A stretch of 64,000 nt of DNA, from contig OZ287086.1 in NCBI GenBank assembly GCA_965645245.1, forward strand, positions 682,001 to 746,000. Reading direction: 5' to 3'. Under the pieces are notes generated by a model that was not told the DNA's origin, made no database searches, and saw only the letters and a list, made by a program, of their open reading frames with translations. This DNA comes from Massalongia carnosa. Lineage: Eukaryota. This document shows, in pieces, positions 41,507 through 64,000 of the stretch (positions are counted from its first letter, which is position 1; each line of letters starts with the position of its first letter). The translations under genes and the position numbers were made by a program.

Positions 41507-43793
41507 GATTGATGATTGATTTTTCTTACGCCGATATGACACCAGCTGAAGCTGGCCCATGCGGGAGATACTACATAGGCTATATAAAGGCAGAAAACCC
41601 GAACGGGTAAAAAACTGCTCCTGCGTACCAGGTTTGTAGAGGACTCGCTCTTTCCCCGGGTTGATCTCTACGGTTTGGGAAACCCGCTATACCCGTTATG
41701 CGCCTGAGTAAGTGCAAGAATAAAAGAGAAGAAAAGAAAATAAGTAGAAGAAAAAACCAATTCTCCTCTCATTATTGCTCCGTCATTTGCGCGGCAATGG
41801 TGTACTGTGTTAGTATGCCCGTACGCATAAGCCATGCAGTGATTATTTTGATCGCTTTGGGGTCTGTTATCAGTTTTTGATAATCCAGCGAGCCAGCTGC
41901 ACGCAACATATCGATTCTATTATGCAATCCGCAGAACATTATCACATGTTTCGCCGTTTGAAAGCGGCTTCCGCACAGGCAGGCCGCGGACTCAATGTCT
42001 GGCACCTTGCGTTTGAATAGAAAACTCGCTAACCCGATTTTCTCTGTTCTAATTTGAATTGCGAGGGAGCTTTGCGCCTTATTCAGCAGCTTGTGCGTGT
42101 TCAACCTGTTTTTGTGCAATGGACCCGACTGTGCTATTGTTGGATCAAGCGTATGTATTGATTGATACGCTATCCATTTGTCCTTCCATTTTTCTTTAAA
42201 TCGTTTCGCTATGATTCCGTCTCTTTCTCTTTGAAGTGCGGCATATTCTGCTCGTTTTTCCTCTTGTGCATTCTCCGCTTTTTCCCATGGTGGTGTGCGT
42301 TTGGGCTTTCTCTTTGTTGATACTTCAGCTGTCAGCTTGGCCACCCATCTCTGTCTACGAGCTCCCGGTGTTTCTCCAATAATCCGTTGTCGCCCTCTTT
42401 TCCCTTTCAATCTCGTTCTGATTTTCTCGCATGCCTGTTCTATGACTTTTGCCTGACCGTTGTGTTGTAGCCTCGATCTACCTTTGGCCTGCAGATGATC
42501 CAAATGTTGCGTCAATGGACAGATGAATGTTTCCGCCTGTAACACCTCGATGGGTGTGGCCCTGTACGCTCCGGCTACTACTCGTAAACATTTGTTTTGT
42601 ACGATCTCGAGTTTGCTTTTCCTCGTGACTTTGACGTGCTTTTGTGTTTCCTCCGGCGTGTGCCATACCAGAGAACCATGGGTCATTGCCGGGCGTACCA
42701 CCGCCGTGTACACGTGACGGGCTTGTAGGAGGGTCGCACCCCAAGTGGCTGCGGCGATTCTAGTCAGCGCTCTCGTTTGTCTCGTCATTTTCTTCTGTAT
42801 CTCTTTGTAGTGCGCCGACCAATTGAGCCTCGTGTCTATGTACACCCCCAGCACTCGTACAGATTTCGTGACGTTGAGTAGTTTGCCGTTTACTGTGAAG
42901 GAAGCTTCGAGATTGAATTTCTTGGGATTTTTTGCTAGATGTATGAGCTCGTATTTATGCGGCGCGAACACGGAGCCGTGGCGTTTCGCCCATCGTTCGC
43001 AATTCTCGTGTATTTCTTTCAATGTTTTGCAATTTTCTTCCGTGGATTTGCCATATGTCAGGATGTTCACGTCGTCTACGAATCCTATGCCTGCCGCGTT
43101 TGTGCTGGGTCTATTGCAAATGTCTAAGAGGTCCGCATTGTAAAAGAGATATAGAATGGGAGATAGAGGAGATCCCTGAGGGATTCCTATGCTCAGCGGA
43201 AATGCGTTAGTGGTGCGTTGATTAATCGTGAGCGTGGTTTCTCTTTCTTTCAAGAAACTATCCGTCCATTTGGCTATCCACTCTGGGATCTTTCGTTTTC
43301 TCATGTCGTGAATGAGCCTACGATGAGAGACGGTGTCAAAGGCTCCCGATACGTCTATGCTCAATAGAGATGCCACTTTATCGTTACCCTGATTCCATAC
43401 GGTGTGCACTTGTTCAGTGAGCAGCTCCAGTGCTGTTTCCGTTCCGCGGCCCGGCCTTGCACCCATTTGAGTATCCGGGATCAGTTTAAATTCTTCCGTC
43501 AGATGGCTAATTTTCCTTGCTATAATGGATTCCAATGCTTTGCCCAACGTGTTCAACAACGCTATGGGTCTCCATGCCTTGGGATCCGTATAGTTTCCTT
43601 TTCCTGGCTTCTTTAGCGTGATAGTGTTGGCGATTTTAAAGACTTTCGGATGATATCCTTCATTCACACATGCTTGAAAAAGTGGTGTCAGCAATTTGAT
43701 TAGGTTTTCTGAACAGGCTTTGAGAATTCTATTTGTGATTCCATCCGGTCCTGGGGCTTTGTCTGGCTTTGGCTTTCGCAGCGCCGCCGCCAC
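41507..43793 (-). mobile_element. 5'-truncated young Tad-like LINE (RT ORF 41772-43793)
   Basis: Almost identical to 52872-55161; (AATC)n tail. Confidence 0.95.
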
Positions 43794-44556
43794 TTGCTGT
43801 CATGATTGTTGTCGCTATTATTGTCATTAGAGTCATTATCATTCTCTTTATCAACTTCATCTTCGTTGTGACCAGATTGAGAGACAGAAGACTGAATAGC
43901 ATTGCTACCTGAATGGCTGGAGTGGTTCGATATTGCACAGGTATGAGGGATCATTTTAGTGAGTTTCCCTGAGATCTAATGTCAGTTTTTCTTTGTCTTA
44001 GCTCTTATACATTTAATTATTACATCTCCCAGTTTTATTGGACAAGCTCGCTCTGATTCGAAAGTCACAATGATCGCACTTAACTAGATATCGATTCTTC
44101 TCGGCCTCCTCAACACGCTATGACTCGCCCTTGCTTGCGAGCCAATTAGTGATCGCCTGCCTTGTCTTATATTTATCGTCCCACTCTTGGCCGATATAAA
44201 GTGACATTGTTGATGATTCGGCTGAAGGATGATTCGGCCAAAGCGAGATTGAACGAGACATAAGTATGCAGAAAAGATGGACGAAGATATGCACATATAA
44301 GTCCAGAGTTAATGCTAGATAGCCCGAGTGCCACGTAGTTCAAATGCCTTGTTTAAGCATTCTATGGAATTTTAATGGCTTATAGCACTGAAAGCAGAAA
44401 GTTATAGAGCTGTAATTGGTAGGTTCAGTCACTCTACCAATGATTGACCTCCCGATATCGCACGATCATCAGGCTACAGATATCTACTCGCTCTTTTTTA
44501 TCGCCGTAATCGTGTCTTCTTTCGTGGAGTGGCAAGGCTTTTATCGGATAGCTGAT

Positions 44557-45299: not shown

Positions 45300-46145
45300 A
45301 AATCTAACTCCCATAATGCTCTGTACAAACTCACCAGACATCAAGCATCAAGAGTCACGGATTACGCATTGAAGCATCTTGGTGATGAGGCAAAAGAGGC
45401 TGGAAAGCATACAGCTGTCACATCTTCTCGTGAAGTGCTCATGATTTAAGCATTCAACGGAGCCTCTCATATAGTCAATCTTGCAGAACGTACCTGCACG
45501 TGTTTGGAATTTCAGGACAAGAAGTTACCTTGTCGTCATGCAATTCTAGGTCAGGAGTATAATCTGGAGTCAGAGGTGCATCTTGGTGATATATATAGGA
45601 TGGAAACGTATCGTGGCACGTACGGGACGTTTATGCCTCCTATTTGCATAGAAGATCTTCATTGTTCCTCCGATTTTCCAGCTCCTCTGATTCGTCGAAA
45701 ATCTGGTCGTAACATAAAGAAGAGGCGGGAGAAAAAGAAGAAAAATCTTTGCATGAAACGCTATTCTTTCTGCAGAAGTACGGATCACAATCGACGCAGA
45801 TGTGATCAGGAAATTCCGCCTCAAGGGAGATGCCGAGACAATGATAACAACGAGGATTTGGATAACAGCTCCACAGCGAATAGCACCATAGATAATGACA
45901 CGGAGAGTAGTTTCGCTGGCTTTTCTGATTATCATGTCAATCTAGAAAGCCCTGGGCATTCTGATTCTTCTAGTTTTTCGGGTGAGGATACGACGATTTT
46001 TGCTTCCAATGTAAATGATCAAGCGGAGGAGTTTAGGCATTGGAATATGGATATGAATTGGAATGGAAGGGGTGGAGGTAGGAGTGGTAATGGGAATGAT
46101 AAAGGGAATGAGAATGGGAATAAGAATGGAGGATTAGAAATATAA
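45300..46145 (+). pseudogene. MULE/Mutator transposase C-terminal remnant
   Basis: SWIM finger VNLAERTCTCLEFQDKKLPCRHA, then YRGTY...P, GRNIKKRR and a degenerate knuckle FCRSTDHNRRRC. Confidence 0.75.
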
Positions 46146-47511: not shown

Positions 47512-49783
47512 TAGGGCTCCGATTTGAAAAGAACTGAAAGTTTGCCTAACCCGATCGGGCGAAACTTTCACTGTCATCTTCATGAGTGAAACTTTCATGG
47601 ATTATTTACAGGGGGGGAGGGGGTGGGTAGGGAGGTGCGGAAAGGGGGAAAAGCGGGGAAAAGTCAGCAAATAGTAAACTTAAAAAGTACGTAATTTTGC
47701 CGGTCATCGTCATACAATTAATTGTATGTATTTCTACTTATTCAACCCATAATCTCGCTGAATCACCTCCTATTTCTTGACTGGCCGGACGTTTCGATGA
47801 CGTCAAGGACTCCTGAATGACAATTTCATCCTGCAGTAATCTGTCTTCCATTTCACATAGATCGCTTTCGTCAATGTCGATGCCAGCAAATTGTAACTTC
47901 TTTTTGATATCCCCAGGTCGGTTGAGGGTACGCTCATTCATGTAGATAAACATGAGTTTATCTACGCTTATCGAGCTCATGGAATTGCGCGTTTTATTCA
48001 TGATCAGATTTATTACCGACCAGCTTCTTTCGGCCAATACCGAACTACCAGGAAGTTTCACCACCTTTCTGGCTAAGCTGCTAAGGGTTGATGCAAAATT
48101 TCTGCTGAATGTCCAAAACAGCTCCGGATCCATTTGATACGTCTAGGATTCGGAGCTTGTATGAAAGCCATCTTCTTGATCGCGAAATGCGAGCTATTTC
48201 TTCATGGCAGTAGCTGCCTCTGCACTAGTCAGATGTTGATTGAAACATCTATGCATTAGCGGAGCAAATGTCGGCTCCGTAGATACGCTAATCACCTTTA
48301 TAGCATGATTCTGAGGAAGCAAAAGAGCTGCTACCACATGAAGCTCAGTAACCTGACTGAGATATCTGTCTTCCCCAAATCAACTGAGCAATGTGATTCA
48401 AATCCGTCTCGTCGTCTTCATTGGCAGCAATTGATTATAGATGAGATCAAATCTTATTCAAGGTGTTGGCTATGGTATAAAGTTTATGCTCTTCGGCCTC
48501 GCACATGTATTGAAACTGATGTATGGGATCCATCACTTTCTTGACAATGAACAGCTTTTTCCAAAAAGAAAAGTCATTGACGAAGCATCTCAAAGAATTC
48601 TTTCTTCCCTGATCAATGCCGGGATTCTTTTGTTGAAAATAATCCAATAAGGCCTGCTGATTTCTGAGGACTGAGTTTAATAAGCCTATCGTCGTTCCCT
48701 ATCTGGTAAGAACGTTAAGAATCAATGAACGGCGTTGTTGATAGGCCTAGAAGTTTGATCATCAGAAAGGTTAGTAATCAGAAAGTTTTATAATTCAAGA
48801 ATTTGGCATACCTTCATTTGATAACCCCTTAAAATAGACATTTCCTTATTCGACCCCCGAAAGCTAGTTACTATCAAATGTGCCTTTTCTAGAACCTCCG
48901 AAAAGAATAGAAATTTCAGTATGTCTCCCATTAGCAATTGCAGACCATAACTGTCGCAGGGAACGAAAAACACGTGTTTCATCTCTGGAAATTTTGCTAT
49001 CTCCATCCACATAGCCTTCATGGTTGCACACGTATCAGTGGCAATGCAATTGATTCTCCAAAACTGATCGTTGGTTGCTTCCTTACAACCTTTTATTACC
49101 CATTGAGCTTGAACGACAGTACTCATCTTCTCGGCAACACCAGCATCAGCTTTCAATTGAAATCCTCCTCCATTGGAGGTGGCGGACGGGGGAACATGAC
49201 AACAGAGATTTATAACACGTTCTTTTCGAATGTTGGCTGTCTCGTCAGTGAAGAAGTTCAGGTAATAAGAAGCATTCAATTCCTTGATAACTTTCGATTT
49301 AACGATGCTATAGATTTCGTCCAACAGCTTGCCAGCAACAAGGCTAGAATGAGGAGGTTTATAGCCTGAATTAAGTTCCTGATGATGAGCAATAACGTAC
49401 GGATTTTCGAAGTGGTTAAATGGCAGATTTGTCATATAGACAGACATCGCAGCTGCTCGATGTGCTGATGCAATTTGGGCTTGATTAAGGGGACGAATCA
49501 ACGTAATGATGGGCAGTTGAATAGAGGTATTACTGAGAATACCTTTCTGTTTTCTAGCTTTCTCTTTTTGATAGGCATCACATTGATTTAGATGCTGTTG
49601 TCCCCTAGCAGCATTTCTGGTTGATTGATGACCGCAATGAATGCATTGATGTTGAGAATTTTTTAAGCCCTCAGTAATGATATCCTTGAAATTCTTATCT
49701 ACCAGGTGATTTTTCTGACGTCCATCTCGGTGAGACATAATAGATAATAATAGAAAGATTCTTGATTATAAGTGCAATTACCT
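47512..49783 (-). mobile_element. hAT transposon body with a degenerate transposase (47738-49738)
   Basis: BED finger CIHC...HLNQC, DETAN, ATDTCATM, PCDSY, TR*GT and dimerisation motif SSVLAERSWS; TIR TAGGGCTCCGA at 47512 next to GCGGTGGG. Confidence 0.9.
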
Positions 49784-49913
49784 GATCTTTAATTAAAACA
49801 CGAGAACGGTAATCGTCAGAATAAGGGTTTATTGAAGGATATATATTAAATCAGCGAGCTTCTCAAGACCCGTCGGAGACTCGTACGAAGGCCGACGCTG
49901 GTGATTCTAAAGA

Positions 49914-51524
49914 ATGATCACGAACGAATACGCCTTGACGCGTGAAATGAGTGAAGCCTACCACTTAACATGTAAAGCGAGGGAGGTACTAAAAGGTATG
50001 GGGGAGACCGTACCAGGCGCAGTAGTGAGTCGCTGGATACTCGCATTGGTGGAGTTCATAGAACAAAACGAGGCAAAACGCGACGCGCCTGACGCGTCGA
50101 ATCAAGAAAGTCTTCAAAGCACACTGCACGACATACAACAAAGATTACAGAAGATTGAGAAGCAGGGAGAAAACAATGGAAAAGCGCTCAGCTACGCCGC
50201 CGTCGCGTCTGGGGGCCGTAGGGGAACGACTGGGGATATCGGAAAGACGCAGACCCAAATCGATGAAAACATGCTTAGAGAAAAGAGAAAGATGAAAGAA
50301 CTCATAGTCAGAATAGAAGATCCCAAAGAGCAAGAGGCCTTGGGAAGAAAGACGACAAAAGAAATCATAGAAGCTATAAAAATCCCCAACAGCGAGATAG
50401 CGGGTATCAGGAAGCTCCCCAGCGGGGATTTGAAAATCCACACCAAAACAGCGCAGGCTAAGCAGAGCCTCCAATCACAACCAGCATGGATAAAGAATGT
50501 GGCGGCATCGGCGACGATTCGTAAAGAGGGATACGCGGTAATAGCACACGGCATGCGGATGAACGATGTACGAGGACCAAAACAAATGAAGGCCATAGAA
50601 TATCTGATAAGAGAAAACAAGGATCTGCACGAAGACCTAAAAATTAATAGAGTGGCATGGAGCACTAGAGCCATTAAGCAGAACAAGAGATACGCGTCTA
50701 TGCACATCGAGGTAGAAACTGCGGAGATGGCCAATCGGCTCATCCTCGTAGGTCTAGCAAACAGAGGAGAAATCAAGACGTGCGAGCTATTCGAAGCCGG
50801 ATGCAAGCTCACACAATGCTTCAATTGTCAACAATACGGCCATATAGCAAAGTTCTGCAGAAATCCCACCACATGTGGATACTGCGCGGGGAGACACGAA
50901 AGCCGATCGTGCCCCGGCAACAAGGCGCCGAGGTTCCTACGATGCGGAGCGTGTGGAGAAAAAGGCCACCCAGCATGGGCGGCAGAATGCAGAACAAGAA
51001 AGGAGAGAAAGCATCGAACGGAAATCGCAAGGGACTCCGCTAGAAGACTTTACGCAACACCTCCGAGCGGGAGAGAAGAGGAAAAGAGAAAGGAAAGAGG
51101 ATTAGGATCGAAAAGCACACCATCTCCCAACGCACCGCTGCAGAACGTCGAAGTGATCATCACAACCGACAACAACAAAGACACCCAACGAAGCCAGACC
51201 GACGGGACAGGGAGCACCATAGTAGAGGAGGAAGAGGTACAGGAGACAAACGATGAAGAAATGACAGAGGCTATGGAAACAATAAGAAAAAGAAAGCCAA
51301 GCACGAACCTCGCAGGAAGACCGCTGGTGGCACGATCGCGATCATTATCGCCCAGGAGAGAGGATAGAGAGAAGCCCCTACGAGGAAGAGAAGAATGGAG
51401 AACGACAAGAATGATGAATCCGGAGATTCGAGAAATGGCCTTCGCCAAGCCGGTGAGAGGTCGTCCACGCATCAGGACGCCAAGCACTAACGAAGAACTT
51501 CTCAACAATGACGATCAATTATGA
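49914..51524 (+). CDS. LINE ORF1 gag-like protein (536 aa)
   Basis: SYAAVA, LPSGDL and knuckles CFNCQQYGH, CGYCAGRH, CGACGEKGH. Confidence 0.93.
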   Translation: MITNEYALTREMSEAYHLTCKAREVLKGMGETVPGAVVSRWILALVEFIEQNEAKRDAPDASNQESLQSTLHDIQQRLQKIEKQGENNGKALSYAAVASGGRRGTTGDIGKTQTQIDENMLREKRKMKELIVRIEDPKEQEALGRKTTKEIIEAIKIPNSEIAGIRKLPSGDLKIHTKTAQAKQSLQSQPAWIKNVAASATIRKEGYAVIAHGMRMNDVRGPKQMKAIEYLIRENKDLHEDLKINRVAWSTRAIKQNKRYASMHIEVETAEMANRLILVGLANRGEIKTCELFEAGCKLTQCFNCQQYGHIAKFCRNPTTCGYCAGRHESRSCPGNKAPRFLRCGACGEKGHPAWAAECRTRKERKHRTEIARDSARRLYATPPSGREEEKRKERGLGSKSTPSPNAPLQNVEVIITTDNNKDTQRSQTDGTGSTIVEEEEVQETNDEEMTEAMETIRKRKPSTNLAGRPLVARSRSLSPRREDREKPLRGREEWRTTRMMNPEIREMAFAKPVRGRPRIRTPSTNEELLNNDDQL

Positions 51525-54500
51525 GAGACACGAACACTCTCACAATTCTGCAGTACAACGTCAGGAAAAGTGCGAAAGGCACACTGATACCATTGCTTGC
51601 AGACGAGAAAACAAAGAATTTCGATATCATTGCTATTCAAGAACCATGGAAAAACCCTACAACGGCCCTACTACTCAACCCCTATCAGAGCGGGTTTCAC
51701 TTACTTTACAAATCCGGAGGAGACACACGCGTCTGCTTCTATATCAACGAGAAGATAGATCCAGAAAGTTGGGACGTGGAATATCCAACAGAAGATCTAT
51801 GCACATTGAATATAGAAATCAGAATAGGAAGCGTGTTAAGAAAAATTCATATACACAACATCTACAATCCATCCCCGTTATCTATCTCAGCGACGGATAG
51901 TCCGTCTACCCTACCGGCCGCCCTGCGTCAACTGAACGGGCCAGGAGAACACATCTTGCTAGGGGATTTCAACCTTCATCATCCACATTGGGGAGGTGCG
52001 AGAGTGCGAGGTCAACACGAGGCGTCCGAACAGCTACTAGACATCATTGAAAGTAAAAATCTTTCGCTCACCCTGCCAAGAGGAACAGTGACATGGGAGG
52101 CAAGAAACTCATTCAGCACCATCGATCTGGTGTTCATGACGGAAGATCTCGTAGAAAGATTGGAACACTGTATCACAGTCCCGGAGCTGAATCAAGACTC
52201 AGATCACGTACCAATATCGACGAGGCTCCGCCTCACCTGTGAACCCCTTACGCCTCCCCGCCGAAGAGCCTGGAAACTCCTGGACATGAATAAACTGAGA
52301 GAAGTTGAGAGAAATGCCCCCACACCACGCGTCGTACGAGGCGCCAACGAAATTGATGCATACACTGCAGATATTCAAGACTACCTCAAAAGAATCGTTC
52401 AAGAGGCGGTACCATGGGCTAAACCTAGTCCCCAGGCGAAGTCCTTCTGGAATAGAGAGTGCGAGGAGGCAACGAAGGAGACCCGCAGGCTTCGTAGGAT
52501 CTGGACGGCGGAAAGAAATCTGTCAGACTGGAAAAACTACATCAGAATGAACGACAAAAAACAGAAAATCATCGGTAAGGCAAGAAATCTTCATTTCAGA
52601 GAACAAATGGCCGAAGTTGCAGCATCAAGAACAGGACTCTTCCGACTCGCAAAATGGGGCAAAGACAGAAGCGACGCACCAAGAGAAATTCCAAAAATGC
52701 CCCCGTTAGCAACAGCACAAAATCCCAATACGATAGCAGACACGTTCGAGAAGAGAGTAAATATGCTGAAGAAGTCCTTCTTTCCCCCTCCTCCTAACGC
52801 GGATCTCGGGGATCTCGTAGGATATTCGTACCCTCCAACACCAGAATGTCCAGCACTGATAACGGAAGAAGAAGTGGCGGCGGCGCTGCGAAAGCCAAAG
52901 CCAGACAAAGCCCCAGGACCGGATGGAATCACAAATAGAATTCTCAAAGCCTGTTCAGAAAACCTAATCAAATTGCTGACACCACTTTTTCAAGCATGTG
53001 TGAATGAAGGATATCATCCGAAAGTCTTTAAAATCGCCAACACTATCACGCTAAAGAAGCCAGGAAAAGGAAACTATACGGATCCCAAGGCATGGAGACC
53101 CATAGCGTTGTTGAACACGTTGGGCAAAGCATTGGAATCCATTATAGCAAGGAAAATTAGCCATCTGACGGAAGAATTTAAACTGATCCCGGATACTCAA
53201 ATGGGTGCAAGGCCGGGCCGCGGAACGGAAACAGCACTGGAGCTGCTCACTGAACAAGTGCACACCGTATGGAATCAGGGTAACGATAAAGTGGCATCTC
53301 TATTGAGCATAGACGTATCGGGAGCCTTTGACACCGTCTCTCATCGTAGGCTCATTCACAACATGAGAAAACGAAAGATCCCAGAGTGGATAGCCAAATG
53401 GACGGATAGTTTCTTGAAAGAAAGAGAAACCACGCTCACGATTAATCAACGCACCACTAACGCATTTCCGCTGAGCATAGGAATCCCTCAGGGATCTCCT
53501 CTATCTCCCATTCTATATCTCTTTTACAATGCGGACCTCTTAGACATTTGCAATAGACCCAGCACAAACGCGGCAGGCATAGGATTCGTAGACGACGTGA
53601 ACATCCTGACATATGGCAAATCCACGGAAGAAAATTGCAAAACATTGAAAGAAATACACGAGAATTGCGAACGATGGGCGAAACGCCACGGCTCCGTGTT
53701 CGCGCCGCATAAATACGAGCTCATACATCTAGCAAAAAATCCCAAGAAATTCAATCTCGAAGCTTCCTTCACAGTAAACGGCAAACTACTCAACGTCACG
53801 AAATCTGTACGAGTGCTGGGGGTGTACATAGACACGAGGCTCAATTGGTCGGCGCACTACAAAGAGATACAGAAGAAAATGACGAGACAAACGAGAGCGC
53901 TGACTAGAATCGCCGCAGCCACTTGGGGTGCGACCCTCCTACAAGCCCGTCACGTGTACACGGCGGTGGTACGCCCGGCAATGACCCATGGTTCTCTGGT
54001 ATGGCACACGCCGGAGGAAACACAAAAGCACGTCAAAGTCACGAGGAAAAGCAAACTCGAGATCGTACAAAACAAATGTTTACGAGTAGTAGCCGGAGCG
54101 TACAGGGCCACACCCATCGAGGTGTTACAGGCGGAAACATTCATCTGTCCATTGACGCAACATTTGGATCATCTGCAGGCCAAAGGTAGATCGAGGCTAC
54201 AACACAACGGTCAGGCAAAAGTCATAGAACAGGCATGCGAGAAAATCAGAACGAGATTGAAAGGGAAAAGAGGGCGACAACGGATTATTGGAGAAACACC
54301 GGGAGCTCGTAGACAGAGATGGGTGGCCAAGCTGACAGCTGAAGTATCAACAAAGAGAAAGCCCAAACGCACACCACCATGGGAAAAAGCGGAGAATGCA
54401 CAAGAGGAAAAACGAGCAGAATATGCCGCACTTCAAAGAGAAAGAGACGGAATCATAGCGAAACGATTTAAAGAAAAATGGAAGGACAAATGGATAGCGT

Positions 54501-54895
54501 ATCAATCAATACATACGCTTGATCCAACAATAGCACAGTCGGGTCCATTGCACAAAAACAGGTTGAACACGCACAAGCTGCTGAATAAGGCGCAAAGCTC
54601 CCTCGCAATTCAAATTAGAACAGAGAAAATCGGGTTAGCGAGTTTTCTATTCAAACGCAAGGTGCCAGACATTGAGTCCGCGGCCTGCCTGTGCGGAAGC
54701 CGCTTTCAAACGGCGAAACATGTGATAATGTTCTGCGGATTGCATAATAGAATCGATATGTTGCGTGCAGCTGGCTCGCTGGATTATCAAAAACTGATAA
54801 CAGACCCCAAAGCGATCAAAATAATCACTGCATGGCTTATGCGTACGGGCATACTAACACAGTACACCATTGCCGCGCAAATGACGGAGCAATAA
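51521..54895 (+). CDS. LINE ORF2 APE-RT polyprotein (1124 aa)
   Basis: QEPW, GDFNLHH, SDH, APGPDGI, GIPQGSPLSP, FVDD, CLCG...KHV; no RNase H domain. Confidence 0.95.
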   Translation: MRDTNTLTILQYNVRKSAKGTLIPLLADEKTKNFDIIAIQEPWKNPTTALLLNPYQSGFHLLYKSGGDTRVCFYINEKIDPESWDVEYPTEDLCTLNIEIRIGSVLRKIHIHNIYNPSPLSISATDSPSTLPAALRQLNGPGEHILLGDFNLHHPHWGGARVRGQHEASEQLLDIIESKNLSLTLPRGTVTWEARNSFSTIDLVFMTEDLVERLEHCITVPELNQDSDHVPISTRLRLTCEPLTPPRRRAWKLLDMNKLREVERNAPTPRVVRGANEIDAYTADIQDYLKRIVQEAVPWAKPSPQAKSFWNRECEEATKETRRLRRIWTAERNLSDWKNYIRMNDKKQKIIGKARNLHFREQMAEVAASRTGLFRLAKWGKDRSDAPREIPKMPPLATAQNPNTIADTFEKRVNMLKKSFFPPPPNADLGDLVGYSYPPTPECPALITEEEVAAALRKPKPDKAPGPDGITNRILKACSENLIKLLTPLFQACVNEGYHPKVFKIANTITLKKPGKGNYTDPKAWRPIALLNTLGKALESIIARKISHLTEEFKLIPDTQMGARPGRGTETALELLTEQVHTVWNQGNDKVASLLSIDVSGAFDTVSHRRLIHNMRKRKIPEWIAKWTDSFLKERETTLTINQRTTNAFPLSIGIPQGSPLSPILYLFYNADLLDICNRPSTNAAGIGFVDDVNILTYGKSTEENCKTLKEIHENCERWAKRHGSVFAPHKYELIHLAKNPKKFNLEASFTVNGKLLNVTKSVRVLGVYIDTRLNWSAHYKEIQKKMTRQTRALTRIAAATWGATLLQARHVYTAVVRPAMTHGSLVWHTPEETQKHVKVTRKSKLEIVQNKCLRVVAGAYRATPIEVLQAETFICPLTQHLDHLQAKGRSRLQHNGQAKVIEQACEKIRTRLKGKRGRQRIIGETPGARRQRWVAKLTAEVSTKRKPKRTPPWEKAENAQEEKRAEYAALQRERDGIIAKRFKEKWKDKWIAYQSIHTLDPTIAQSGPLHKNRLNTHKLLNKAQSSLAIQIRTEKIGLASFLFKRKVPDIESAACLCGSRFQTAKHVIMFCGLHNRIDMLRAAGSLDYQKLITDPKAIKIITAWLMRTGILTQYTIAAQMTEQ

Positions 54896-56515
54896 TGAGA
54901 GGAGAATTGGTTTTTTCTTCTACTTATTTTCTTTTCTTCTCTTTTATTCTTGCACTTACTCAGGCGCATAACGGGTATAGCGGGTTTCCCAAACCGTAGA
55001 GATCAACCCTGGGAAAGAGCGAGTCCTCTACAAACCTGGTACGCAGGAGCAGTTTTTTACCCGTTCGGGTTTTCTGCCTTTATATAGCCTATGTAGTATC
55101 TCCCGCATGGGCCAGCTTCAGCTGGTGTCATATCGGCGTAAGAAAAATCAATCAATCAATCAATCATGACAGCAAGAGCGACAATATGAGCGTTCATACT
55201 GACATGGGTGACTGGGATGGATTCAGTGATCGTTCTTTTGTTTTTAGGTCTCGCAGATTCTCAGCTCAAAACGATGAAGATATTGCGATCGAGAGTGACA
55301 AGAGTTTTACATCTCATCGCGACAAAAGTATTACACTCGAGAGTGAGATGGATTCCTCATCTCGATCTCAATCGTCGTCAATTGTAACAGACTCATCAGA
55401 AGATACTAAGGAAGAGCAGAAAAACTATGCTTGTTGGGCTATTGGATGGCTAGATATGGACGAGGCACAGTTACAACAATTTCAAAGGTTTGATATGGAT
55501 CAGACGTTTGCTGGAACACTACAGTAACATAGAAATTACAAACGTCGCTTTCCAGAGGCGGCCGAAGAAGAAGCTCGCAAAAAACGAATACTTTATGCTA
55601 ACCAGGCACGTACTCACCATATGATTAATTCATGGCTAATAATTGAAAGCAGGGTCGAAGATTTCTGACAGAGCGACAGTATCAACTTATCGTTCCCCAT
55701 TTTGAGCCCATAGCTCCAGCTCCATCGTCGCATTCTTCAGTTCTTAGAAAGTTTTTCACCCGCCCATTATAGACGTATCCTCAAAGACGATGTCCTCTTC
55801 CTCTACGCATTCCTTTAGGAGAGCCAACACCACTTTCGGAAGGGGAGAGAACACCAGTAGGCTGTGGTTTTGATGACTTTCCGTACGAGAAAGACGATGC
55901 ATTACCGGAAGAGAGAGTGGAAGTCGAGAATACATTAGCGGATGAGCGACAAGAAGCTGAGGATATACTGGCGGAGGAGCAAAATTGGAGCATGCTAGAG
56001 AAAGGTAAAGAACGTGACCGGGCACTGATCTCACCTCGTAAATCTAGATCTGGACGGATATTGAAACGTACTGTGAGAGCGCAAGAAGCTTTACACACAA
56101 AGCATGCCAACTTAGCAAAGGCAGCTTTAGAACGCTCTAGAGAAGTATCATTGACTGACATAATAAACAAGTCACCTCCTCGAAAACGACAAAGGCGAAG
56201 GACAAAGTCGAGTCAATAGTTGAGTCTAGAGATTATCCTTACAGAGAGAAAGGATAAGCAATCGTGTTTTCTGTCATGAAGTGACAGGGCATCTGCCGGC
56301 TAGCTACGTTCCATGTACCACTTCTTCGGAGGCGATTTTTTTGGTGAAGGAATAACATATCGAAACATGACAGTCTGGGGATGGAAAATTAGAACATGAC
56401 TTTATATTGTGATGTTTTCCATATATTTTTGTATAGGTATCTACTCGCTTTTCCTCGTGCTTGCCATTTAATCGTGCAGTCGTAATATATACTTCAAGAT
56501 CGATTTCGAAATCTA

Positions 56516-57878
56516 CACTGTAGCTGTGTAAAAGTCTTCGGCACACCCCACCAAAACTAAAATTCCCTTTTACAGGAGATTTGTTCCACCTATTCCCTAC
56601 CCCCCAAACAACCGTTTGAAACCTCCAAAATTGCATTGATAATCGATTGATATGTGCTCTATTTACTACCCGAATTTGGTGGTGCTGATACTTTGTATGC
56701 CACCCCTCCGCAGCAATAAATGCTGCCACCTTGCGGGGCATGCTTGCAATCAGTCCATCTATTACCTCCTCACGAATGTTCCCCCATGCCTCCTGCAGAA
56801 TGTTAAACAGCTTGGATTCTGCCTCGTCGCCCTTGCCCTCTAGCGAATTGATGTCGGGATAAACTTTGTAGGCATCTTTCTTGAGAAGGGCCCAAAGCTT
56901 TTCGATGGGATTTAAGTCGGGGCTGTAGGGTGGCAAGTCCATTACCTCTATCCCCCATTCCTTAAACCACGCCTTTGTTTTATTCGCTCCATGAATAAGG
57001 GCATTATCCTGCATGAAAACAAGACCGGGCGTCTATATTCCTAGCAAGTTGGACTCCAAAACCTGTATGTAGGACTTTGCTGAGTAACCTTGCTTTTTAG
57101 ACTCCTAATCCCGCTCCAAAAGATGAAGATTCGACCTTCCCGATCCCCAAAGTGCCTCCCATATCATAATACTAAAGGCCTTGCCTTTGGGACCTTCCTG
57201 AAGCTTATCACGATCCCATTTCTGATCAGGAGTTCCAAAAGACCAGTCACGGCCTTTGCCCGAACCCTTTTCACAGAAGACTCATCTGATTAGATTACAG
57301 TTTTCCACTGTTCCACCGTCCAGTCCTCGTGTTTTCGTGCCCAATTCAGTCGGAGATTTGCCAGAGCTGGGGTCAATTTAGGCCGCCTCAAGGCGATCCA
57401 ATGAGCTATCCCATTGTTCTTGAGCACCTTGTTGAACGTCTGCCTGCAGATTTTCAACCCCAAGGCTGTTTTGACCTGATTCCAACTTGTTTTTGGGTTG
57501 ATTCGAACATACCGCAGCACGGATCTGACCGCTCGAGGGGTAACAACAGGGGGCCGGTCGCATCGGGATCTATTTTCTCCAGACGGAACTGTTTGTTCTC
57601 TCTGCAAAAATCTCTGAATGGTGGTGCGGGGGACGTTCAATTGATGATGAATTTCAGTGGGTATTAAACCCGCCCGGGCGAGGCCTGATCGGGCGAGGCC
57701 TGATATTTGACCTTTTGTAAACGTAGATAACTCCCTTCGAGGGGTCTTATTAGCAGAGATAGGGGTCAATGGGCTTCGTTTCGGCATGGTGATGGTGGGT
57801 TGAAAAGGATGAGTTTGGGGGAGACGCGATTTTTCTCGAAAATTACGCGAAATAACGAACACTTAATCATACCCACTG
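56516..57878 (-). mobile_element. Degenerate Tc1/mariner transposon
   Basis: TA flanks at 56514-56515 and 57879-57880; transposase fragments (MPKRSPL, QDNA, SPDLNPIE, GWHTKY); imperfect TIRs. The host sequence is uninterrupted at 45059-45298. Confidence 0.9.
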
Positions 57879-58161
57879 TAAACCCCCAATGACCCCCCAA
57901 TGACCCCCAAATGACCCCCAAATGACCCCCTTCAATTAATTACAGTTCTTGGGGGGTCATCGTGACAGCGCTAGAAGCAAAATTACGTTTATGTTACGGT
58001 AATTGACCCCCAATTAACCCCAGACAATATGGGGGTTATTTAGGAGTCATTTCAGAAATTTGCCGATCTCAGTAATTTGACCGTTGATTTAAAAATATCA
58101 CCTCTTTTATTACGAGCTTGTTGAAAACAAGCAATTTATTTATGAGCGCGTGAGTTATCAT

Positions 58162-59283
58162 GATGTATTCATACTCCCATGTCCCTGGCCATAGGCCGGC
58201 CCATACGGGCAAAGCTATCTAAGTTATATTACAAGGAAACCCTTTTTAAGGTGTAAAAACTTTATCCCTCGATACCTGTCTGATGCGATACCGGGTCCAT
58301 GCCGGACGGGAGACGCAGAGCGAGAAGCGTGTGAGGGCTGTGACGCCTTGTGAGATGAGAAGGAAAAGAGAAGTGAGACTACTGTTGATTGTACAACAGT
58401 GTGAATGCCAGTGTGAATTCAGTTCAGTAGACCTGTTTTCATTAGCCAAGCAGTTAATATCTTCAGAGTTTTTGAAGTTTCGGTCAGCTGTTGATAGTTG
58501 TTCGTGCCAGCGGCGCGAAACATCTGTTCCCTGTTGTCAATAAGTCTACAGAATATAATTACGTGTTCTGGAGTTTGTCTGTGCCAGCCACATGGGCAGG
58601 CCGGTGAGGTGACGGCGGGGACCCGTCGCTGGTAGAGGAAGTCAGCTAAACTGATCTTACCGGTGCGAACCTGTGTTGTCACGGCGCTTTCTGCCTTTTC
58701 CAGCAGCGTGTGTATTTTCAGTCTTTTTTTGCTCAAGGGACTGATTGAGCTATGGAGGGTTCGATGACGCGATTTTGATATACGTGCCACGGGTCGTCCC
58801 AGACTTTCAGCTGTCGTGCTTTAAGTATCTTCAGTTACTTTAGACGAGCCGACGCTGCTACAGAGACTTCACGGAGATGTGACTAGGAGGGTTCCGAAAA
58901 TAGTAGGTCTGCTTTAGGTGGTTAAAAGACTTTTGCGTCGATCAGCAGGTTATTGGCCCAGGTATGCTTCAACTCGCCCGGGGGTTTATTGAATACGTTT
59001 ACGGCCTACCTTGCCTCGGTGTTTGTTTACTATTCTGCTGTATGCGGAATAAATGATTTTCGATTAACCTCCGGCTCTGAGACGATGTCTGGCCTGTGCT
59101 TGTATCGTGTCGAGATTTGCATCTGAAGGAGCTATGTATGTCTCTACTTCAAGAACTGGAGTGGGAGTGGCTTTGAAGGTGCCAGCTATAGTGCGGAGAC
59201 AGTTGTTTTGTATGATACTCGTTGACGTTTTTGACTTTTTGGGAATGTGCCATACGGTTGACCTGTATGTCATGACCCGCATT
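58162..59283 (-). mobile_element. 5'-truncated degenerate Tad-like LINE
   Basis: CLRTIAGTFKATP, QVRTGKI and CPCGWHRQT; imperfect TSD TGAGTTATCAT/TGAATTATCAT. Confidence 0.85.
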
Positions 59284-59313
59284 TGAATTATCATTTATTA
59301 TAACGAGCTCGAT

Positions 59314-61590
59314 TTAATTGTCCTGCTCCAGATCTTCATCCCAATATTGAGGCTTGCCCGTCAATTTGCGATATTGCTTACCCGTCTTCTTATAAGAGAA
59401 GTTCCTGATAAACTCCTCGTTAAGAAAAAGCTCTTTGGCCATCATTGCATCTCGCGCGTTGATGCTTTTTCGTCTTTTACGAATAACTTTTAACAACTCT
59501 GTTTGACTTATACGTTCCATATTTCCCTTCTTTTTCGCACGTCGCATATGTGCATTCCAAAAATCCTCTTTATTTGCGTAATTGCGTCGTTCCTGCATGA
59601 TGCACTTTATTTCGTTTAAAAAGTGTTCTTTAATAAAGTGCTCGTCAAAAAACATACCTTCCAATTGCTATAATGTCCTTTGATAAGAGTCCATGTTTCT
59701 GACATATAACCTTTGTATAACGTTCCCCAATAACGTACAGGTACGCTGATACCTCTCACATACATGTAATACGGATGGCGCTAGAGGGATACGTGATCGC
59801 CTATGGCGGTTGCGGGATAAACTAGCGTGGACCATGCCGTAGTACGAAGTCGCATAAGCCGTCGAGGCTGACACACTGCCATCTTGCCCCGAAACTTCGG
59901 AGTTATTGTTATCACGTTCTTGACTACTTACAGATCAAACACCTGTCGAGGCCGTGGTGGTAGATTGCCATGGAGTGTAAGGCGGACTCCTGTAGAGACG
60001 CCGAGGAACTCTATATGGGATCTACTGGCCTACTCGGAGCTACTGGATCTCTTGCTGGATCAAGAGATGTAGCAGGAGGCACAGCTCGCTGGACGCAGCT
60101 TGAGTATAGCCTCCCCGGTGTAAACTTCAGCTTCAACCTTTATTACTACGTTGGTAGTGATGTCGGCTGAATAAACCTACATGACCTCGTTGTCTAGACC
60201 TTGTGTCTAGAATCAGGTCCGCAGTGTAGCGAGGTATTCAGTCGAAGGTAACCTTCCATCACTAGGTAGTGGTGACGGCGAAATGAAGCTACATAGCCTG
60301 AGGCATGTAGTGAGGGATCTAGCTCGGGGTAGAATTGTTCTACCTTGCAAGGGAAGATCTAGAAGGCTGCTAGAGGCTGACTAGATGATCCAGCGAACGC
60401 CTAGTTCGTGGATGGATCCTGAGGGATGGTTGGATGTAATGCGATAAAGTCGGATGTGGATTGCAAGACTGTAATGCTCGCAAGACTCCCAAGGCTTGCA
60501 AGGCTCCTAAGATTCCAAGCCTCCCAAGGCTTTAGGCTTGAGGTGAGTAGGATAAATATCAGAACGAATCTTGTAGTATTCGTTAGCAATTAGTCTTTAT
60601 TCTATAAACAACCTACGTTTGGGTCTCCGACGAGATCTCTTGCTCTAAGCACTTTACATCCATTAGTTCTTTGGATCACATATACTCTCGGAGACTAGCA
60701 CGTAGTAGCTATCTTCCACCTCTCACGCTGAGCATTTCCCCTTTCGAGATCAATGTCGCTCGTGATAAGCTTACTGGTCTCGTAGCCCATTACAATACAC
60801 TTGCGCGGATGTTTCGTCCTCCCAATCGTTAAACAACGCGCTCAGATTTTCAGCATATTTGACATGCGGAGGAGCAGGCACATCATCAATCGTGAAGGTC
60901 ACTTGGCCGTGTGGCATGACAATCGTTGTTGTTTTCTTTTTCTTCGTTGGTAATAAGCTCGCTGCATCTGCTGTTTGAGAATTTGCTCGCTTAGAACGAG
61001 ACAAGGGTGCTAATGTTCCCGATTTGCCAGCTGTTGCTTCCTGCACAATTCTTTGCATTGTTTCTTCTAAATTATCTGTGGCTTTATCTGATGGAACGAT
61101 ATAATGATGATGATGATACGTGATTATTTGTTGTTTGCTCGTACTAGATAATGGAGTTTCTATACGAGAAAAGACTGGTCGAAATTTATTTTTTGAAACG
61201 AGCTCATTGGAAATAAACGGATCGCTATCATTGGGAACGAATGTGATAAAGGGTCGAGAAGAAGATAAAGTAGCATCAGAATTCGTCACAGAATCTGATA
61301 TAGTAGTAGCATTCAGTGCAGCGGTAGTGGCTAATCTATGTAAGTAATTGTCTTCAATTAAGTCCAGCTTATTATAATATACCGATCAGACGAGAATCTT
61401 CTTTTTGTTCAGTCATTGTTTTTTCACCCGCAAGAAAATATCTATGAGCAAAAGCTACCATTGCTTCTCTTTGCTCAGAAGTACGAAGATCGTCATCAGC
61501 GCGCTCGTTACTAATAAGACTATTTCTAACAACGTCTTGCACGGGGAGATTTCCTCGACCTGTAATTTGTTTCTTGATTTTAAGAGGCAT
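59314..61590 (-). pseudogene. Unknown-function partner gene of the YR element, interrupted by an LTR
   Basis: Removing 59747-60782 restores ...DVPAPPHVKYAENLSALFNDWED...CNG(L/V)PVRYWGTLYKG...WTLIKGHYSNWK, then an intron and ...FWNAH...FSYKKTG. Confidence 0.65.
59747..60782. mobile_element. Probable solo LTR (~1.04 kb)
   Basis: Ends TGATACC...GGTCTCG; degenerate 5-bp TSD TACGC/TAGCC; its removal restores the host reading frame. Confidence 0.65.
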
Positions 61591-61838
61591 ATTTCGATTG
61601 AAAAGAGCACGTTCACGACGAGTTTTGATATAATAAACGTTATCAAATAAATAAGTAGACGAAGAAAATTAACAATCATATCGTTAGCTTAAAATAAATA
61701 TTTGCTTGCAAGAACAAGCGTTGTTTCTTAGTGTTAAATATTTTCACTTTTCTTTATCTTACACGTCGAGCTCGTTTCTTCCTTGTTTAATTATCACGTT
61801 TTGATTATCAACTATTTTTTCATTTCGAGCCCCTCAAT

Positions 61839-63753
61839 ATGAACTCGTCACAGCAAGACGATCTTGTGTTGTCTTCTGATTTGCAGTCTATAATTGATGC
61901 ACAACAAGATGAATTAGATCAAGACGAAATAAACGAAGATTTTCAAGAACAAAGCTCAACAACAGCTGCAGAAGAGGATTTAGATTCTGAAAACCATATC
62001 GATTTACCTTTATGTGCTACGCAAAGCTTCTGAGGGTGCTCATGCCAAAAGTACACTTGCGGGATACAAAGGGTATTATTCTTTATGAACGTGCTCTTTA
62101 ATAAAGTTCACGTTTAAAATGTAGAGCATCTGTTAATAAATGAATCCAGTCAATGGAGGATGTTTTCATCCTGGGTCAAGGATAATTTTCCTAACATGAG
62201 ATATCTGTGTTACATCCAGACAAAAACACTCTATATTTGATAGCTTATTGGATTTATCAAAACTGTGATTCTCCTGAATCTGTTGAGTAAATGCATTATT
62301 CTTTAATACTAATGATCTCGTTATTAATGAACCTTTCAATAATTAAAACTCAACACTTGCTATTCCTCAAGATAAGTCATGGTTACATGCATGTAAAATG
62401 CGCTCCGCATGCAGTTGGAAGTATACATATAGCATGGAGATAGGTTCGCATCCTTGGAGAAAGGATCGAGATTGTTTATACAGTGGCAATCCGTCTATTT
62501 CGAGCACGGTATCTATCTACATGAAAAGCTTACAAAGAAAAAAAGTGAGTTCTTTTCGTTCGAGCTCTTTTAAAATAAGCATTATCAATAATATATTTCA
62601 GGTGCGAGCAGGTACTGTATCTCAAAGCGCAAGAGCAATAGTGTAAGGTTATTGTGACAGGCGATGGGAGGGAGCCCTATAGAGCTATGGCATGCGAGGA
62701 TAGAATGGATAAACTGAAAACTAGCTATCTATAAGAACCGAAACGACTAATATATACCCCTCTCTGATGTCCTACTCCTAAGAAATTCCTATCCTGATAA
62801 CTCCGATGACGCGTTGTCAGGGTCTAGACGTTCTGTCCCCGATCGAGGCGAGGATCCTCGTCCATGTGTCGAGACTCTGACAAATAGACGCAAATTTGTT
62901 ATTTCGTTTATACGAAAATAACAAGCAACATAAAACCGCTAGTCAACTGCATAGACTCGATGTAGACGAGCAAGGAGATCGATTTTAGGGCGGAGCAGCT
63001 CAACGTATGATGATATCAGTTGCTTATGTTTTGAGTTTCTTGTGTCTTTTGCGATTTGATAAAGTTCTGCACATTCAAGCACATCATATCGAGCTCATAG
63101 ATGAAGAGAAAGGTAAAATCTCGTTGTGGTTAAAGTTTCGCAAAACACATCAGGAAGGAGGTATGTGATTGCTATATGAGAGTTCATATTATACGAGCTT
63201 GTTTTAAACGAGAATAACAATAACAATTCTCAGAAATCAAACCGTTTTATTAAGACTGGAATCGGAAGGAACCAAATCTAGATGCTGTACATCTCTTGTG
63301 TAGATGGTTGCATCATACTGAAATAAAAGAAGGATTTATTTTCCGTCGATTCGATCAGTATGATAGAGTGGATAAAGCAAGTCGTCCTATAGTGAGTATG
63401 CTTGATAGTTCTTGTTTTCAAAGTGCTCTCTTTAAACGAGCTCTTAGACCTCGTCCACGTTTTTAGAGAATTTTCGCAACAATCTTGCCGATATAGGAAT
63501 AGATCCAGCTCCTTATGGTACTCATTCATTTCGAAGAGGAGGTGTACAATATCTTTCGAGTGAAAAACGATGCAACATACGCAAATTATGTGACTGGGGT
63601 GGATGGTCTTAAAGTTATAATACTTTAACAATCGTTCGTTATTTAATGAATTGGAATGATGATCCTATAAGATATCGAGATGATTTCATTAATCCGGAAG
63701 CACAGATCGGAGTAAAATGTTCTTATTGTAGTCGAGCTTGCGATTGTGCATAA
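61839..63753 (+). pseudogene. Intron-containing tyrosine recombinase (Crypton-like); missed by the ORF track
   Basis: Spliced reading: GNPSIS...SARAI|D...FLCLLRFD...FRKTHQEG-EIKPF...FRNNLADIGID...YGTHSFRRGGVQY...CDWGGWS...TIVRYL...CSYCSRACDCA. Several in-frame stops. Confidence 0.88.
62642..62882. mobile_element. Solo LTR (241 bp) inside the YR gene
   Basis: TGT...ACA ends; perfect TSD AATAG; removal restores the reading frame. Confidence 0.88.
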
Positions 63754-64000
63754 AGAACTCATTAAATACTAGTTTATGAGCTCGAACAATGAAAACCAGG
63801 AGGATGATATCAATCTGTTCTATAATGATAAAAGTTAAGTGCTTATTTAGATAAACTCTTTTCACCCGAAATCCGACTCCTCATCTTTATCCTCCCCCCC
63901 CCCCCTCCTCTTCACCCTCCTCCTCACTCCTCTCCTCTTCCTTACCTTCCTCCTCTCTCATCTCCTCATCCGTACTGAAAGGATCGGACGACACTTCCTC

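Follow-up and report, generated by a model that had tools for sequence, protein, structure and literature searches.

A tyrosine recombinase (YR) gene standing head to head with a second spliced gene, amid the remains of other mobile DNA, occupies the right-hand end of a 64,000-nucleotide stretch of the Massalongia carnosa genome (contig OZ287086.1, positions 682,001 to 746,000; hereafter the window, numbered from its first letter), and raises the question of whether the pair constitutes a transposon and, if so, of which kind. To our knowledge, no class of eukaryotic DNA transposons is as poorly understood as the Cryptons, which have ends that are hard to find and accessory factors that are unknown, and their relation to the DIRS/Ngaro retroelements and to the Starships is unsettled. 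In 2003, Goodwin et al. reportedly described Cryptons as excising as circles and inserting at a short shared sequence. We judge that the locus is probably a dead copy of a family of fungal YR DNA transposons, widespread in fungi and in soil DNA, ~4.5-5.1 kb in length and without a reverse transcriptase (RT), and our verdict on this family is that it represents Crypton-like YR DNA transposons of a new architecture.

The YR gene (61839-63753, plus strand) and the spliced partner gene, here termed P (61590-59314, minus strand), lie head to head with 248 bp between their start codons, close to the ~250 bp given for a divergent gene pair by an earlier annotation of this DNA (the original prediction). 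The intergenic region is presumably a shared promoter. Two solo long terminal repeats (LTRs) split the two genes, and a truncated long interspersed nuclear element (LINE) lies just beyond the partner stop. The parts of the locus are as follows, with matches to a 15-bp palindrome, considered further below, given by position:

58070..58161, minus strand: remnant of the element arm downstream of P, 92 bp, AT-rich (39% G+C), palindrome matches at 58112 and 58142
58162..59284, minus strand: 5'-truncated LINE (non-LTR), 20 bp beyond the partner stop; an insertion, not part of the element
59314..59604, minus strand: exon 4 of P (the last), C-terminal half of the conserved domain, stop at 59314-59316, profile E 2e-38
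59605..59657, minus strand: intron 2 of P, 53 nt, GT..AG, palindrome match at 59636
59658..59759, minus strand: exon 3 of P, which is exon 2 resumed after the LTR, encoding ..VRGISVPVRYWGTLYKG..NWK
59760..60794, minus strand: solo LTR of 1030 bp, TG..CA (59765-60794), plus one TGTAT copy, splitting the conserved domain of P; an insertion, not part of the element
60795..61330, minus strand: exon 2 of P, low-complexity, YHHHH, then the start of the conserved domain (..DVPAPPHVKY..DWED..)
61331..61382, minus strand: intron 1 of P, 52 nt, GT..AG, the removal of which joins the frames without a stop
61383..61590, minus strand: exon 1 of P, ATG at 61590-61588, weak match to pseudogenised copies in the related loci L037 and L042
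61591..61838: divergent intergenic region, 248 bp, 30% G+C, palindrome at 61766
61839..63753, plus strand: YR gene, now a pseudogene, start codon at 61839 and stop at 63751-63753
62637..62882: solo LTR of 241 bp, TG..CA (62642-62882), plus one AATAG copy, within a YR exon; an insertion, not part of the element
63754..64000: beginning of the arm that follows YR, palindrome match at 63776, CT-rich from 63881; the element extends beyond the window

Contigs from four public runs (from three studies and two organisms, a lichen metagenome among them) were aligned to positions 57500-64000 of the window, and in all four runs contigs bridged both 59760-60794 (1035 bp) and 62637-62882 (246 bp), with five ambiguous letters per skip. 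Both inserts run from TG to CA and are accompanied by 5-bp duplications (TGTAT, on the minus strand, and AATAG); their G+C content is 50% for the larger and 47% for the smaller, compared with 36-40% in the element, and the larger reached ~100 times the depth of adjacent bins in the four runs. The contig skips, termini, duplications, base composition and depth together identify the inserts as solo LTRs, upholding the two LTRs of the original prediction. A reading of 62641-62886 as an intron was rejected, since the contigs bridge this site as that of a solo LTR. The 1030-bp LTR (59765-60794) is very abundant in all four runs and so belongs to a very successful LTR family of these fungi.

The single LINE that had been predicted was likewise recovered. 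Positions 58425-59276 (minus strand) match residues ~795-1115, the last ~320, of the second open reading frame (ORF2) of the window's own LINE in a tblastn comparison, and 10-bp direct repeats identical at nine of ten positions flank the segment (58152-58161 and 59285-59294), which together point to a 5'-truncated LINE insertion. When the LINE between these repeats is removed, the arm remnant (58070-58161) joins 59285-59313. The left arm is cut by a Tc1/mariner terminal repeat at 57892-58066, and because no inverted repeat corresponding to the other Tc1/mariner end was found in 55000-58300, the remainder of this arm is untraceable. To the right, the element had been predicted to end at 63850. 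This limit did not hold, as a 4810-nt contig from run X5, the lichen metagenome, runs from the last partner exon through both empty LTR sites to base 64000 and extends 1395 nt past it, differing from the window by ~3.5%. Within the 64-kb window the element was found only once, as was each of the two LTRs. The history of this copy would have comprised the insertion of a solo LTR into each gene and of the LINE after the partner, the cutting of the left arm by a Tc1/mariner element and the point mutations that killed the YR.

The YR motifs previously listed (CLLR, RKTHQ, HSFRRGG, CDWGGW, RYL and a C-terminal CxxCxxxCxC) were all present on the plus strand, as FLCLLRFD, FRKTHQEGG, HSFRRGG, CDWGGWS, TIVRYL and the cysteine cluster. 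GT-AG introns were placed at 62073-62149, 62545-62601, 63161-63233 and 63392-63447, with a further alignment gap at 62287-62371 that has no clear splice sites. The closest named homologue, P0007, a 518-residue hypothetical protein of Physcia stellaris, aligned through residues 81-469 over 62014-63705. In-frame stops were found at 62986-62988 (TAG, where relatives have W), 63251-63253 (TAA) and 63610-63612 (TAA), together with an additional frame change near 62005 and the loss of 1 nt at 62192; at this last position one more A is present in each of the four runs, and with it the frame is restored. With three in-frame stops and at least one frameshift, the window copy of the YR gene is a pseudogene. 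Repeat-induced point mutation (RIP) was considered as the cause of the low G+C content and the stops and was rejected, as the indices do not fit: TpA/ApT values were 0.76-0.85, CpG was not depleted and the base composition had no RIP signature. Low G+C is instead a trait of the family, and a near-identical sequence is present in a lichen metagenome. The horizontal acquisition that had been suggested for the element has nothing in its support and is not needed.

Homologues of the YR were sought with the last exon as the query, its stop being read as X. It was found that 14 of 29 scored candidates were YR homologues, with 54-67% identity over this exon, and that they originated from the Agaricomycetes Psilocybe, Suillus, Marasmius, Favolaschia and Paramarasmius as well as from Physcia and Cryoendolithus, under names that include 'DNA breaking-rejoining enzyme' and 'Tyr recombinase domain-containing protein'. 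The catalytic R, H-x-x-R, W and Y residues were invariant in 10 aligned proteins and are present in the window frames. Among seven YR proteins, Pfam Phage_integrase was matched below its curated cut-off in three (best E 5e-5), and one homologue gave a weak match to NDC10_II (E 0.0066). The GCR1_C domain of CryptonF (PF12550) was absent from all seven according to Pfam, and DUF3435, the signature of Starship captains, matched neither the YR homologues nor the open reading frames (ORFs) of related loci, in keeping with the prediction that both signatures would be missing. Nor was DUF3504, by which the YR domain of CryptonA and Glomhopper is recognised, matched in the seven homologues (E up to 0.1) or in the YR exon ORFs of related loci (E up to 0.01). 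Pfam searches with single window exons gave nothing useful, and a PDB sequence search with the YR returned only Cre, at E 0.06 and above. The absence of an RT, also previously claimed, was borne out in that a Pfam scan of 11 ORF pieces from 58419-63753 gave no RT match. In a separate observation, the 1210-residue protein P0014 of Paramarasmius palmivorus contains both a YR of the present family (residues ~384-540) and XPG_N/XPG_I nuclease domains (729-902), a combination that reflects either the merging of gene models or a genuine fusion.

With the LTR (59760-60794) and the two introns removed, P is a single open frame of 378 codons. Its frame changes were also considered as frameshifts, a reading that was rejected in favour of two GT-AG introns, and the relatives break at the same point as intron 2, after ..NW(K/R). 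The lesions of P are limited to the LTR, plus 12 residues of exon 4 lost in frame relative to a 90%-identical copy elsewhere. Its architecture is that of a low-complexity N-terminus followed by a conserved domain of ~190 residues without a known fold match. Among 1.84 billion representative proteins, the last exon found ten, mostly short fragments; one of these (P0025) was identical to the partner frame of the window, and another two (P0015 and P0017, 90% identical to the window) were located together on another contig of 2.02 Mb, which, judged from its sequence, is a second copy. The locus is therefore not single-copy, a possibility that the original prediction had regarded as fatal, and diverged as well as uninterrupted copies exist in the four runs from three studies.

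Similarity searches placed P in no described protein family. Pfam matched none of the 38 sequences of the full partner alignment and none in overlapping sets of 8 and 12, and a PDB sequence search gave nothing below E 0.1. A word-index search of longer proteins returned nothing for the 204-residue partner ORF or for the partner-domain alignment, which is weak evidence, as tblastn searches of metagenome loci found partner relatives that the word-index search had missed. The predicted model of the partner domain was confident (predicted local distance difference test, pLDDT, 89; predicted template modelling score, pTM, 0.82), and in comparisons of this model the best Foldseek match in the PDB had an E of 1.5, a wide VIA-align search gave a best Z of 4.7 with none at or above 5, and the best match in BFVD had an E of 0.95. 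On predicted models, the lack of a fold match for P, or for the third gene described below, does not show that the fold is new.

Whether the two genes travel together was addressed by a metagenome scan with the YR alignment, in which 232 relatives were confirmed among 405 candidate stretches and 80 loci were kept. A profile of the C-terminal domain of P matched 42 of the 80 loci (E 4e-26 to 2e-6), and in all 42 the partner lay on the strand opposite to the YR, 22 times upstream (head to head) and 20 times downstream (tail to tail). With exon 2 of the window as the query, 29 loci were listed (best E 2e-8), and the partner was recognised in six further loci (L007, L012, L022, L031, L034 and L037) whose contigs fall short of the C-terminal domain; most loci without a partner match have too little flank. 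The proposed linkage of the gene pair is sustained in these loci. An open YR frame of at least 350 residues remained in only one of the 80 loci, and the introns were kept in nearly all. RT, RNase H, DDE and other transposon domains were found in none of 65 ORFs of at least 100 residues from 16 related loci, in which the sole strong domain match was to a host PRMT5 gene adjoining the element in L052. There, a complete element has this arginine methyltransferase gene (L052:4490-5821) as the immediate neighbour of its right end, so the family does insert next to housekeeping genes. In the 118-132 kb contigs of L037, L042 and L043, tandem repeats of ~200 bp follow the YR and one piece of the partner is 9 kb off, as would be expected of an old copy that subsequent insertions have broken up.

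A quick maximum-likelihood tree was inferred from the catalytic region of the YR (85 rows, 198 columns). One clade, with a support of 98 in the Shimodaira-Hasegawa-like approximate likelihood ratio test (SH-aLRT), held all 17 tail-to-tail loci in the tree, seven loci without a partner match and all eight Agaricomycete proteins; the other side (SH-aLRT 87) held the head-to-head loci, the window and three ascomycete proteins. Gene layout follows the YR tree. The YR of the window grouped with proteins of lichen-forming and rock-inhabiting ascomycetes, so that of the earlier remark that both proteins resemble hypothetical proteins of Basidiomycota, the existence of Agaricomycete homologues stands, but these form the tail-to-tail sister clade.

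The head-to-head clade was found to carry an extra minus-strand frame downstream of the YR, 40-75% identical between loci, which encodes a small protein, here termed Z, with an invariant CxxC...CGC and a GWKAL.RPERER stretch. A Z profile matched 28 of the 80 loci, including none of the 20 tail-to-tail loci, and an inspection of ten loci with the tail-to-tail layout revealed no additional conserved frame. The gene set of the family is therefore fixed, consisting of YR, P and, in the clade of the window, Z; the description of the element as bipartite remains correct for the linked partner and falls short in the window's clade, where there are three genes. In relatives the Z stop lies ~85-630 bp past that of the YR, and as just 247 bp of the window remain beyond the YR stop, Z would here lie largely or wholly outside. 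The last 110 bp of the window contain, on the minus strand, an acidic E/G-rich open frame entering from beyond with a stop near 63889, which could be the tail of Z. The same region (63881-64000) is a CT-rich run with 14 consecutive C. Z had no Pfam match and no PDB sequence match, and its best E in a fold search against the PDB was 3.

As the window copy lacks its own ends, the termini of the element were established from relatives, in which elements measured 4538-5101 bp. Loci L010 and L015, 98.6% identical, diverge directly after ..GGACTGTCTGATTACAGGAAGAATC, and a right end in which GACAGTCC-N7-GGACTGTC precedes ~16 conserved bases, the last four being GAAT, was found 35-180 bp from the contig end in eight loci, with a slightly altered form in four more. 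In a second pair, L052 and L075 were 91-93% identical over 4.7 kb and different on both sides, the boundaries falling between AAAT and TGGGCC.. on the left and directly after ..GGGTAAAT on the right. A 4-bp repeat is associated with these ends, AAAT being present at both ends of L052 and L075, and GAAT having been seen at left ends and at right ends of relatives.

Words of 7-8 bp, in inverted orientation, were located ~15-25 bp inside each end, being GGACTGTC in one subfamily and ACCGTAT in the other. The left end carries word A1, an inverted word pair (B1 and A2) follows 300-400 bp inward, and the right end carries B2; B1 copies the right-end sequence and A2 the left-end sequence, giving the layout A1...B1-A2...genes...B2. 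This layout was seen in the two subfamilies among the 8 and 4 left arms examined, all from relatives. For instance, L052 has words of the A type at 96, 340 and 470 and of the B type at 351, 371 and 4822.

A 15-bp palindrome, YTCG-N7-CGAR, recurs many times in the relatives, in introns, spacers and arms, with 13-20 dispersed copies per element; L030 had 35 matches against 0.54 expected, and L009 had 20 against 0.07. The window has its own version, AACGAGCTCGTT. Element DNA makes up 5.3% of the window and contained 6 of 10 matches with up to one mismatch (p 4e-6) and 17 of 47 with up to two mismatches (p 1e-10). A match was present in each of the four clear YR introns, in the gap at 62287-62371 and in one partner intron. 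In the arm past the YR of L059 (4130-5222) and L062, at least six repeats of ~170 bp each carry one GCTCGGAATTTCCGAGC palindrome; this array is iteron-like and precedes the terminal word pair.

Several known systems resemble this family in part. In the Crypton model, the element is excised as a circle and inserted at a short shared sequence, and published Cryptons are described as single-gene elements without terminal inverted repeats or long repeats, although some also carry a gene for a peptidase or a DDE transposase (Kojima and Jurka 2011, PMC3212892). The present family is similar to Crypton and CryptonF in that the YR is the sole recognisable enzyme, no RT is present, the YR has spliceosomal introns and the hosts are fungi. 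The 4-bp direct repeat at both ends of relatives would fit circle-and-microhomology integration as in Cryptons, and the weak NDC10_II match of one homologue recalls CryptonF. In contrast, a GCR1_C domain was detected in neither the YR nor the partner, the single gene is replaced by two or three separate ones that keep a fixed arrangement, relatives have inverted words near both ends and an internal copy of both ends, and the family has dispersed palindromes and a YR with a C-terminal CxxCxxxCxC. Oomycete CryptonS and CryptonF elements with a C48 peptidase, and MarCry, provide a precedent for an extra protein-coding gene (PMC3212892); however, the extra genes here are neither peptidase nor DDE transposase, lack a Pfam match, and have kept their linkage across two deep clades and in two orientations.

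Among retroelements, DIRS has inverted terminal repeats with an internal complementary region and Ngaro has split direct repeats in the order A1..B1A2..B2 (PMC13465315). With DIRS, Ngaro and PAT the family shares a YR and, in relatives, end sequences repeated internally as an adjacent pair. It differs in having no RT, RNase H or methyltransferase, in keeping its introns, and in that the internal pair is near the left end, before the genes, with imperfect repeats of ~25-35 bp. Starships (PMC11162782, PMC13486527) are likewise fungal YR DNA elements with short direct end repeats and accessory genes beside the YR, but they have a DUF3435 captain at the 5' end, carry cargo and measure tens to hundreds of kb, whereas elements of this family are ~5 kb, have no DUF3435 and no cargo, and do not have the YR as the first gene at an end.

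These resemblances suggest other ways of accounting for the locus. It could be an ordinary CryptonF in which GCR1_C has been split into a separate gene, P being a divergent GCR1_C protein that does the same job, and we regard this as possible, if rather doubtful. Language-model look-alikes of two partners that are ~25% identical both include clusters with PF12550 members (for P0022 the first match, score 0.91, with 186 of 256 features shared and PF12550 in 20% of members; for the L080 domain rank 3, 0.89, 174 features and 33% of members), and Ndc10/Cbf2, to which the single weak NDC10_II match points, is derived from CryptonF by Kojima and Jurka (2011, PMC3212892). Such scores are, however, in a range reached by 4-10% of shuffled proteins, and hmmscan, even with E values of up to 10 admitted, found PF12550 in none of the 38 partners, nor was it found in any of the seven YR proteins, such that the look-alikes offer a lead only to a GCR1_C kinship of P. 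Descent from a non-autonomous or degenerate retrotransposon of the DIRS/Ngaro type that has lost its RT and moved in trans is improbable in our estimation: inverted ends with an internal side-by-side copy, as in the relatives, are the hallmark layout of that group (PMC13465315), yet neither RT nor RNase H occurs in the 65 ORFs from 16 loci, the same two or three non-RT genes are conserved across two deep clades, unlike in deletion derivatives, and the spliceosomal introns kept in nearly all YR genes argue against passage through spliced RNA.

Two further readings would remove the locus from the transposons altogether, and we attach very little probability to either. Were the YR and its partner host genes, forming a domesticated recombinase module in a transposon-rich region, then it would be understandable that the annotation of some named homologues is that of a lone hypothetical gene on a long contig and that the YR of L037 and L043 lies inside a contig of more than 100 kb; but the window copy is a pseudogene among dead transposons, a second copy at 90% identity is located on another contig, one organism holds many diverged short contigs, copies with different flanks have exact ends in common, and the 232 relatives in soil metagenomes include many on contigs of ~5 kb. 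An integrated nuclear plasmid of the 2-micron type, with the YR serving copy number, the partners serving partitioning and the palindromes acting as a partition locus, would fit the clustering of relatives' contigs at 4.7-5.6 kb, the inverted repeats, the 13-20 palindromes and the palindrome-bearing repeats of ~170 bp in L059. No contig, though, shows the end overlap of an assembled circle, L052 runs on into the host PRMT5 gene, the pairs L010/L015 and L052/L075 have the same ends with different flanks, and the copy in the window forms part of a chromosome, where it is nested among other transposons.

The interpretation that we prefer, a dead copy of a Crypton-like DNA transposon, has a number of findings weighing against it. 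The partner was not seen in L038/L039 (one sequence, with 10 kb downstream) or in L051 (3 kb), which belong to the tail-to-tail clade, and in L037, L042 and L043 it survives only as pieces with stops. Each end was set by one copy pair per subfamily, the right flank of L075 being only 16 nt, and internal and terminal copies of the end sequences agree at only 12-23 of 30 positions. Relatives with known termini share only protein-level similarity with the window copy, the 8-mer GGACTGTC is absent from the window, and a resemblance of 63754-64000 to the arms of relatives was rejected, as it did not exceed shuffled controls. Neither transposition nor a circle was observed, no site empty of the whole element came to light, and the roles of P and Z, neither of which has a Pfam or fold match, are guesses. 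The family may also already be filed in Repbase or Dfam, which were outside the search.

If the Crypton model is combined with the anatomy of intact relatives, the YR would excise the element as a circle and reinsert it at a 4-bp GAAT or AAAT, which would end up as a direct repeat at both element ends, the recombinase recognising the 7-8-bp words near each end. The internal B1-A2 pair would provide a second pair of direct sites, and recombination at these could release a complete circle and could leave a short A1-B remnant. P is probably a sequence-specific DNA-binding accessory with the 15-bp palindrome as its likely target, and Z is probably a zinc-binding helper.

In keeping with the original prediction of a poorly described transposon, no described family was matched, in that Pfam gave nothing above threshold and no description of such elements was found in the literature, the search covering neither Repbase and Dfam nor the supplementary files of papers; Additional file 1 of Kojima and Jurka, which concerns element structures, may bear on novelty. 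A stronger claim, that these elements form a distinct YR DNA transposon lineage in which a YR is combined with a sequence-specific P of new fold and a zinc protein Z, with ends and an internal junction of the DIRS/Ngaro type and no RT, is one that we put forward tentatively and consider somewhat unlikely. Were it true, the lineage would represent either the counterpart of YR retrotransposons that is made of DNA only or the type from which they arose. Through the internal junction the element could then shed complete circles with a short remnant staying behind, and the 13-20 palindromes, placed in every intron and spacer, would allow P to coat it.

The remainder of the window (1-57900) is a transposon graveyard, in which the following features were recognised:

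1-1797, minus strand: Ty3/Gypsy pol
8601-12629, plus strand: LINE with endonuclease and RT
22968-23696, minus strand: Tc1/mariner
41772-43799, minus strand: LINE with endonuclease and RT
45450-46145, plus strand: SWIM/MULE-like frame
48788-49765, minus strand: DUF659 hAT-like frame
49911-54895, plus strand: LINE with endonuclease and RT
56304-57862, minus strand: Tc1/mariner

Long direct repeats were also present, pairing 13457-14209 with 32263-33016 (93-94% identity, ~19 kb apart) and 10485-11173 with 35486-36179 (81-87% identity, ~25 kb apart); these are probably further LTR or LINE copies. At 25474-28419, a 126-bp unit is repeated ~22 times in tandem, with 83-95% identity to reference copies. 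The array lies inside an open frame of 1401 codons (24253-28458, plus strand), where the G+C content and skew of the window are highest, and represents either a satellite or a highly repetitive coding region.

The window copy itself is a dead relic without functional consequence. The family to which it is assigned has an anatomy of exact ends, candidate recombinase-binding words that change along with the YR clade, a junction-like site in the interior, a conserved partner in two orientations and dense palindromes, and an element of 5 kb makes DNA recognition by a eukaryotic YR transposon, and the role of the partner in it, questions for the bench. P and Z, two protein families without a Pfam or PDB relative, gain a likely functional context, and many genes annotated as 'hypothetical' or 'DNA breaking-rejoining enzyme' in Agaricomycete and lichen-fungus genomes are likely to be transposon genes.

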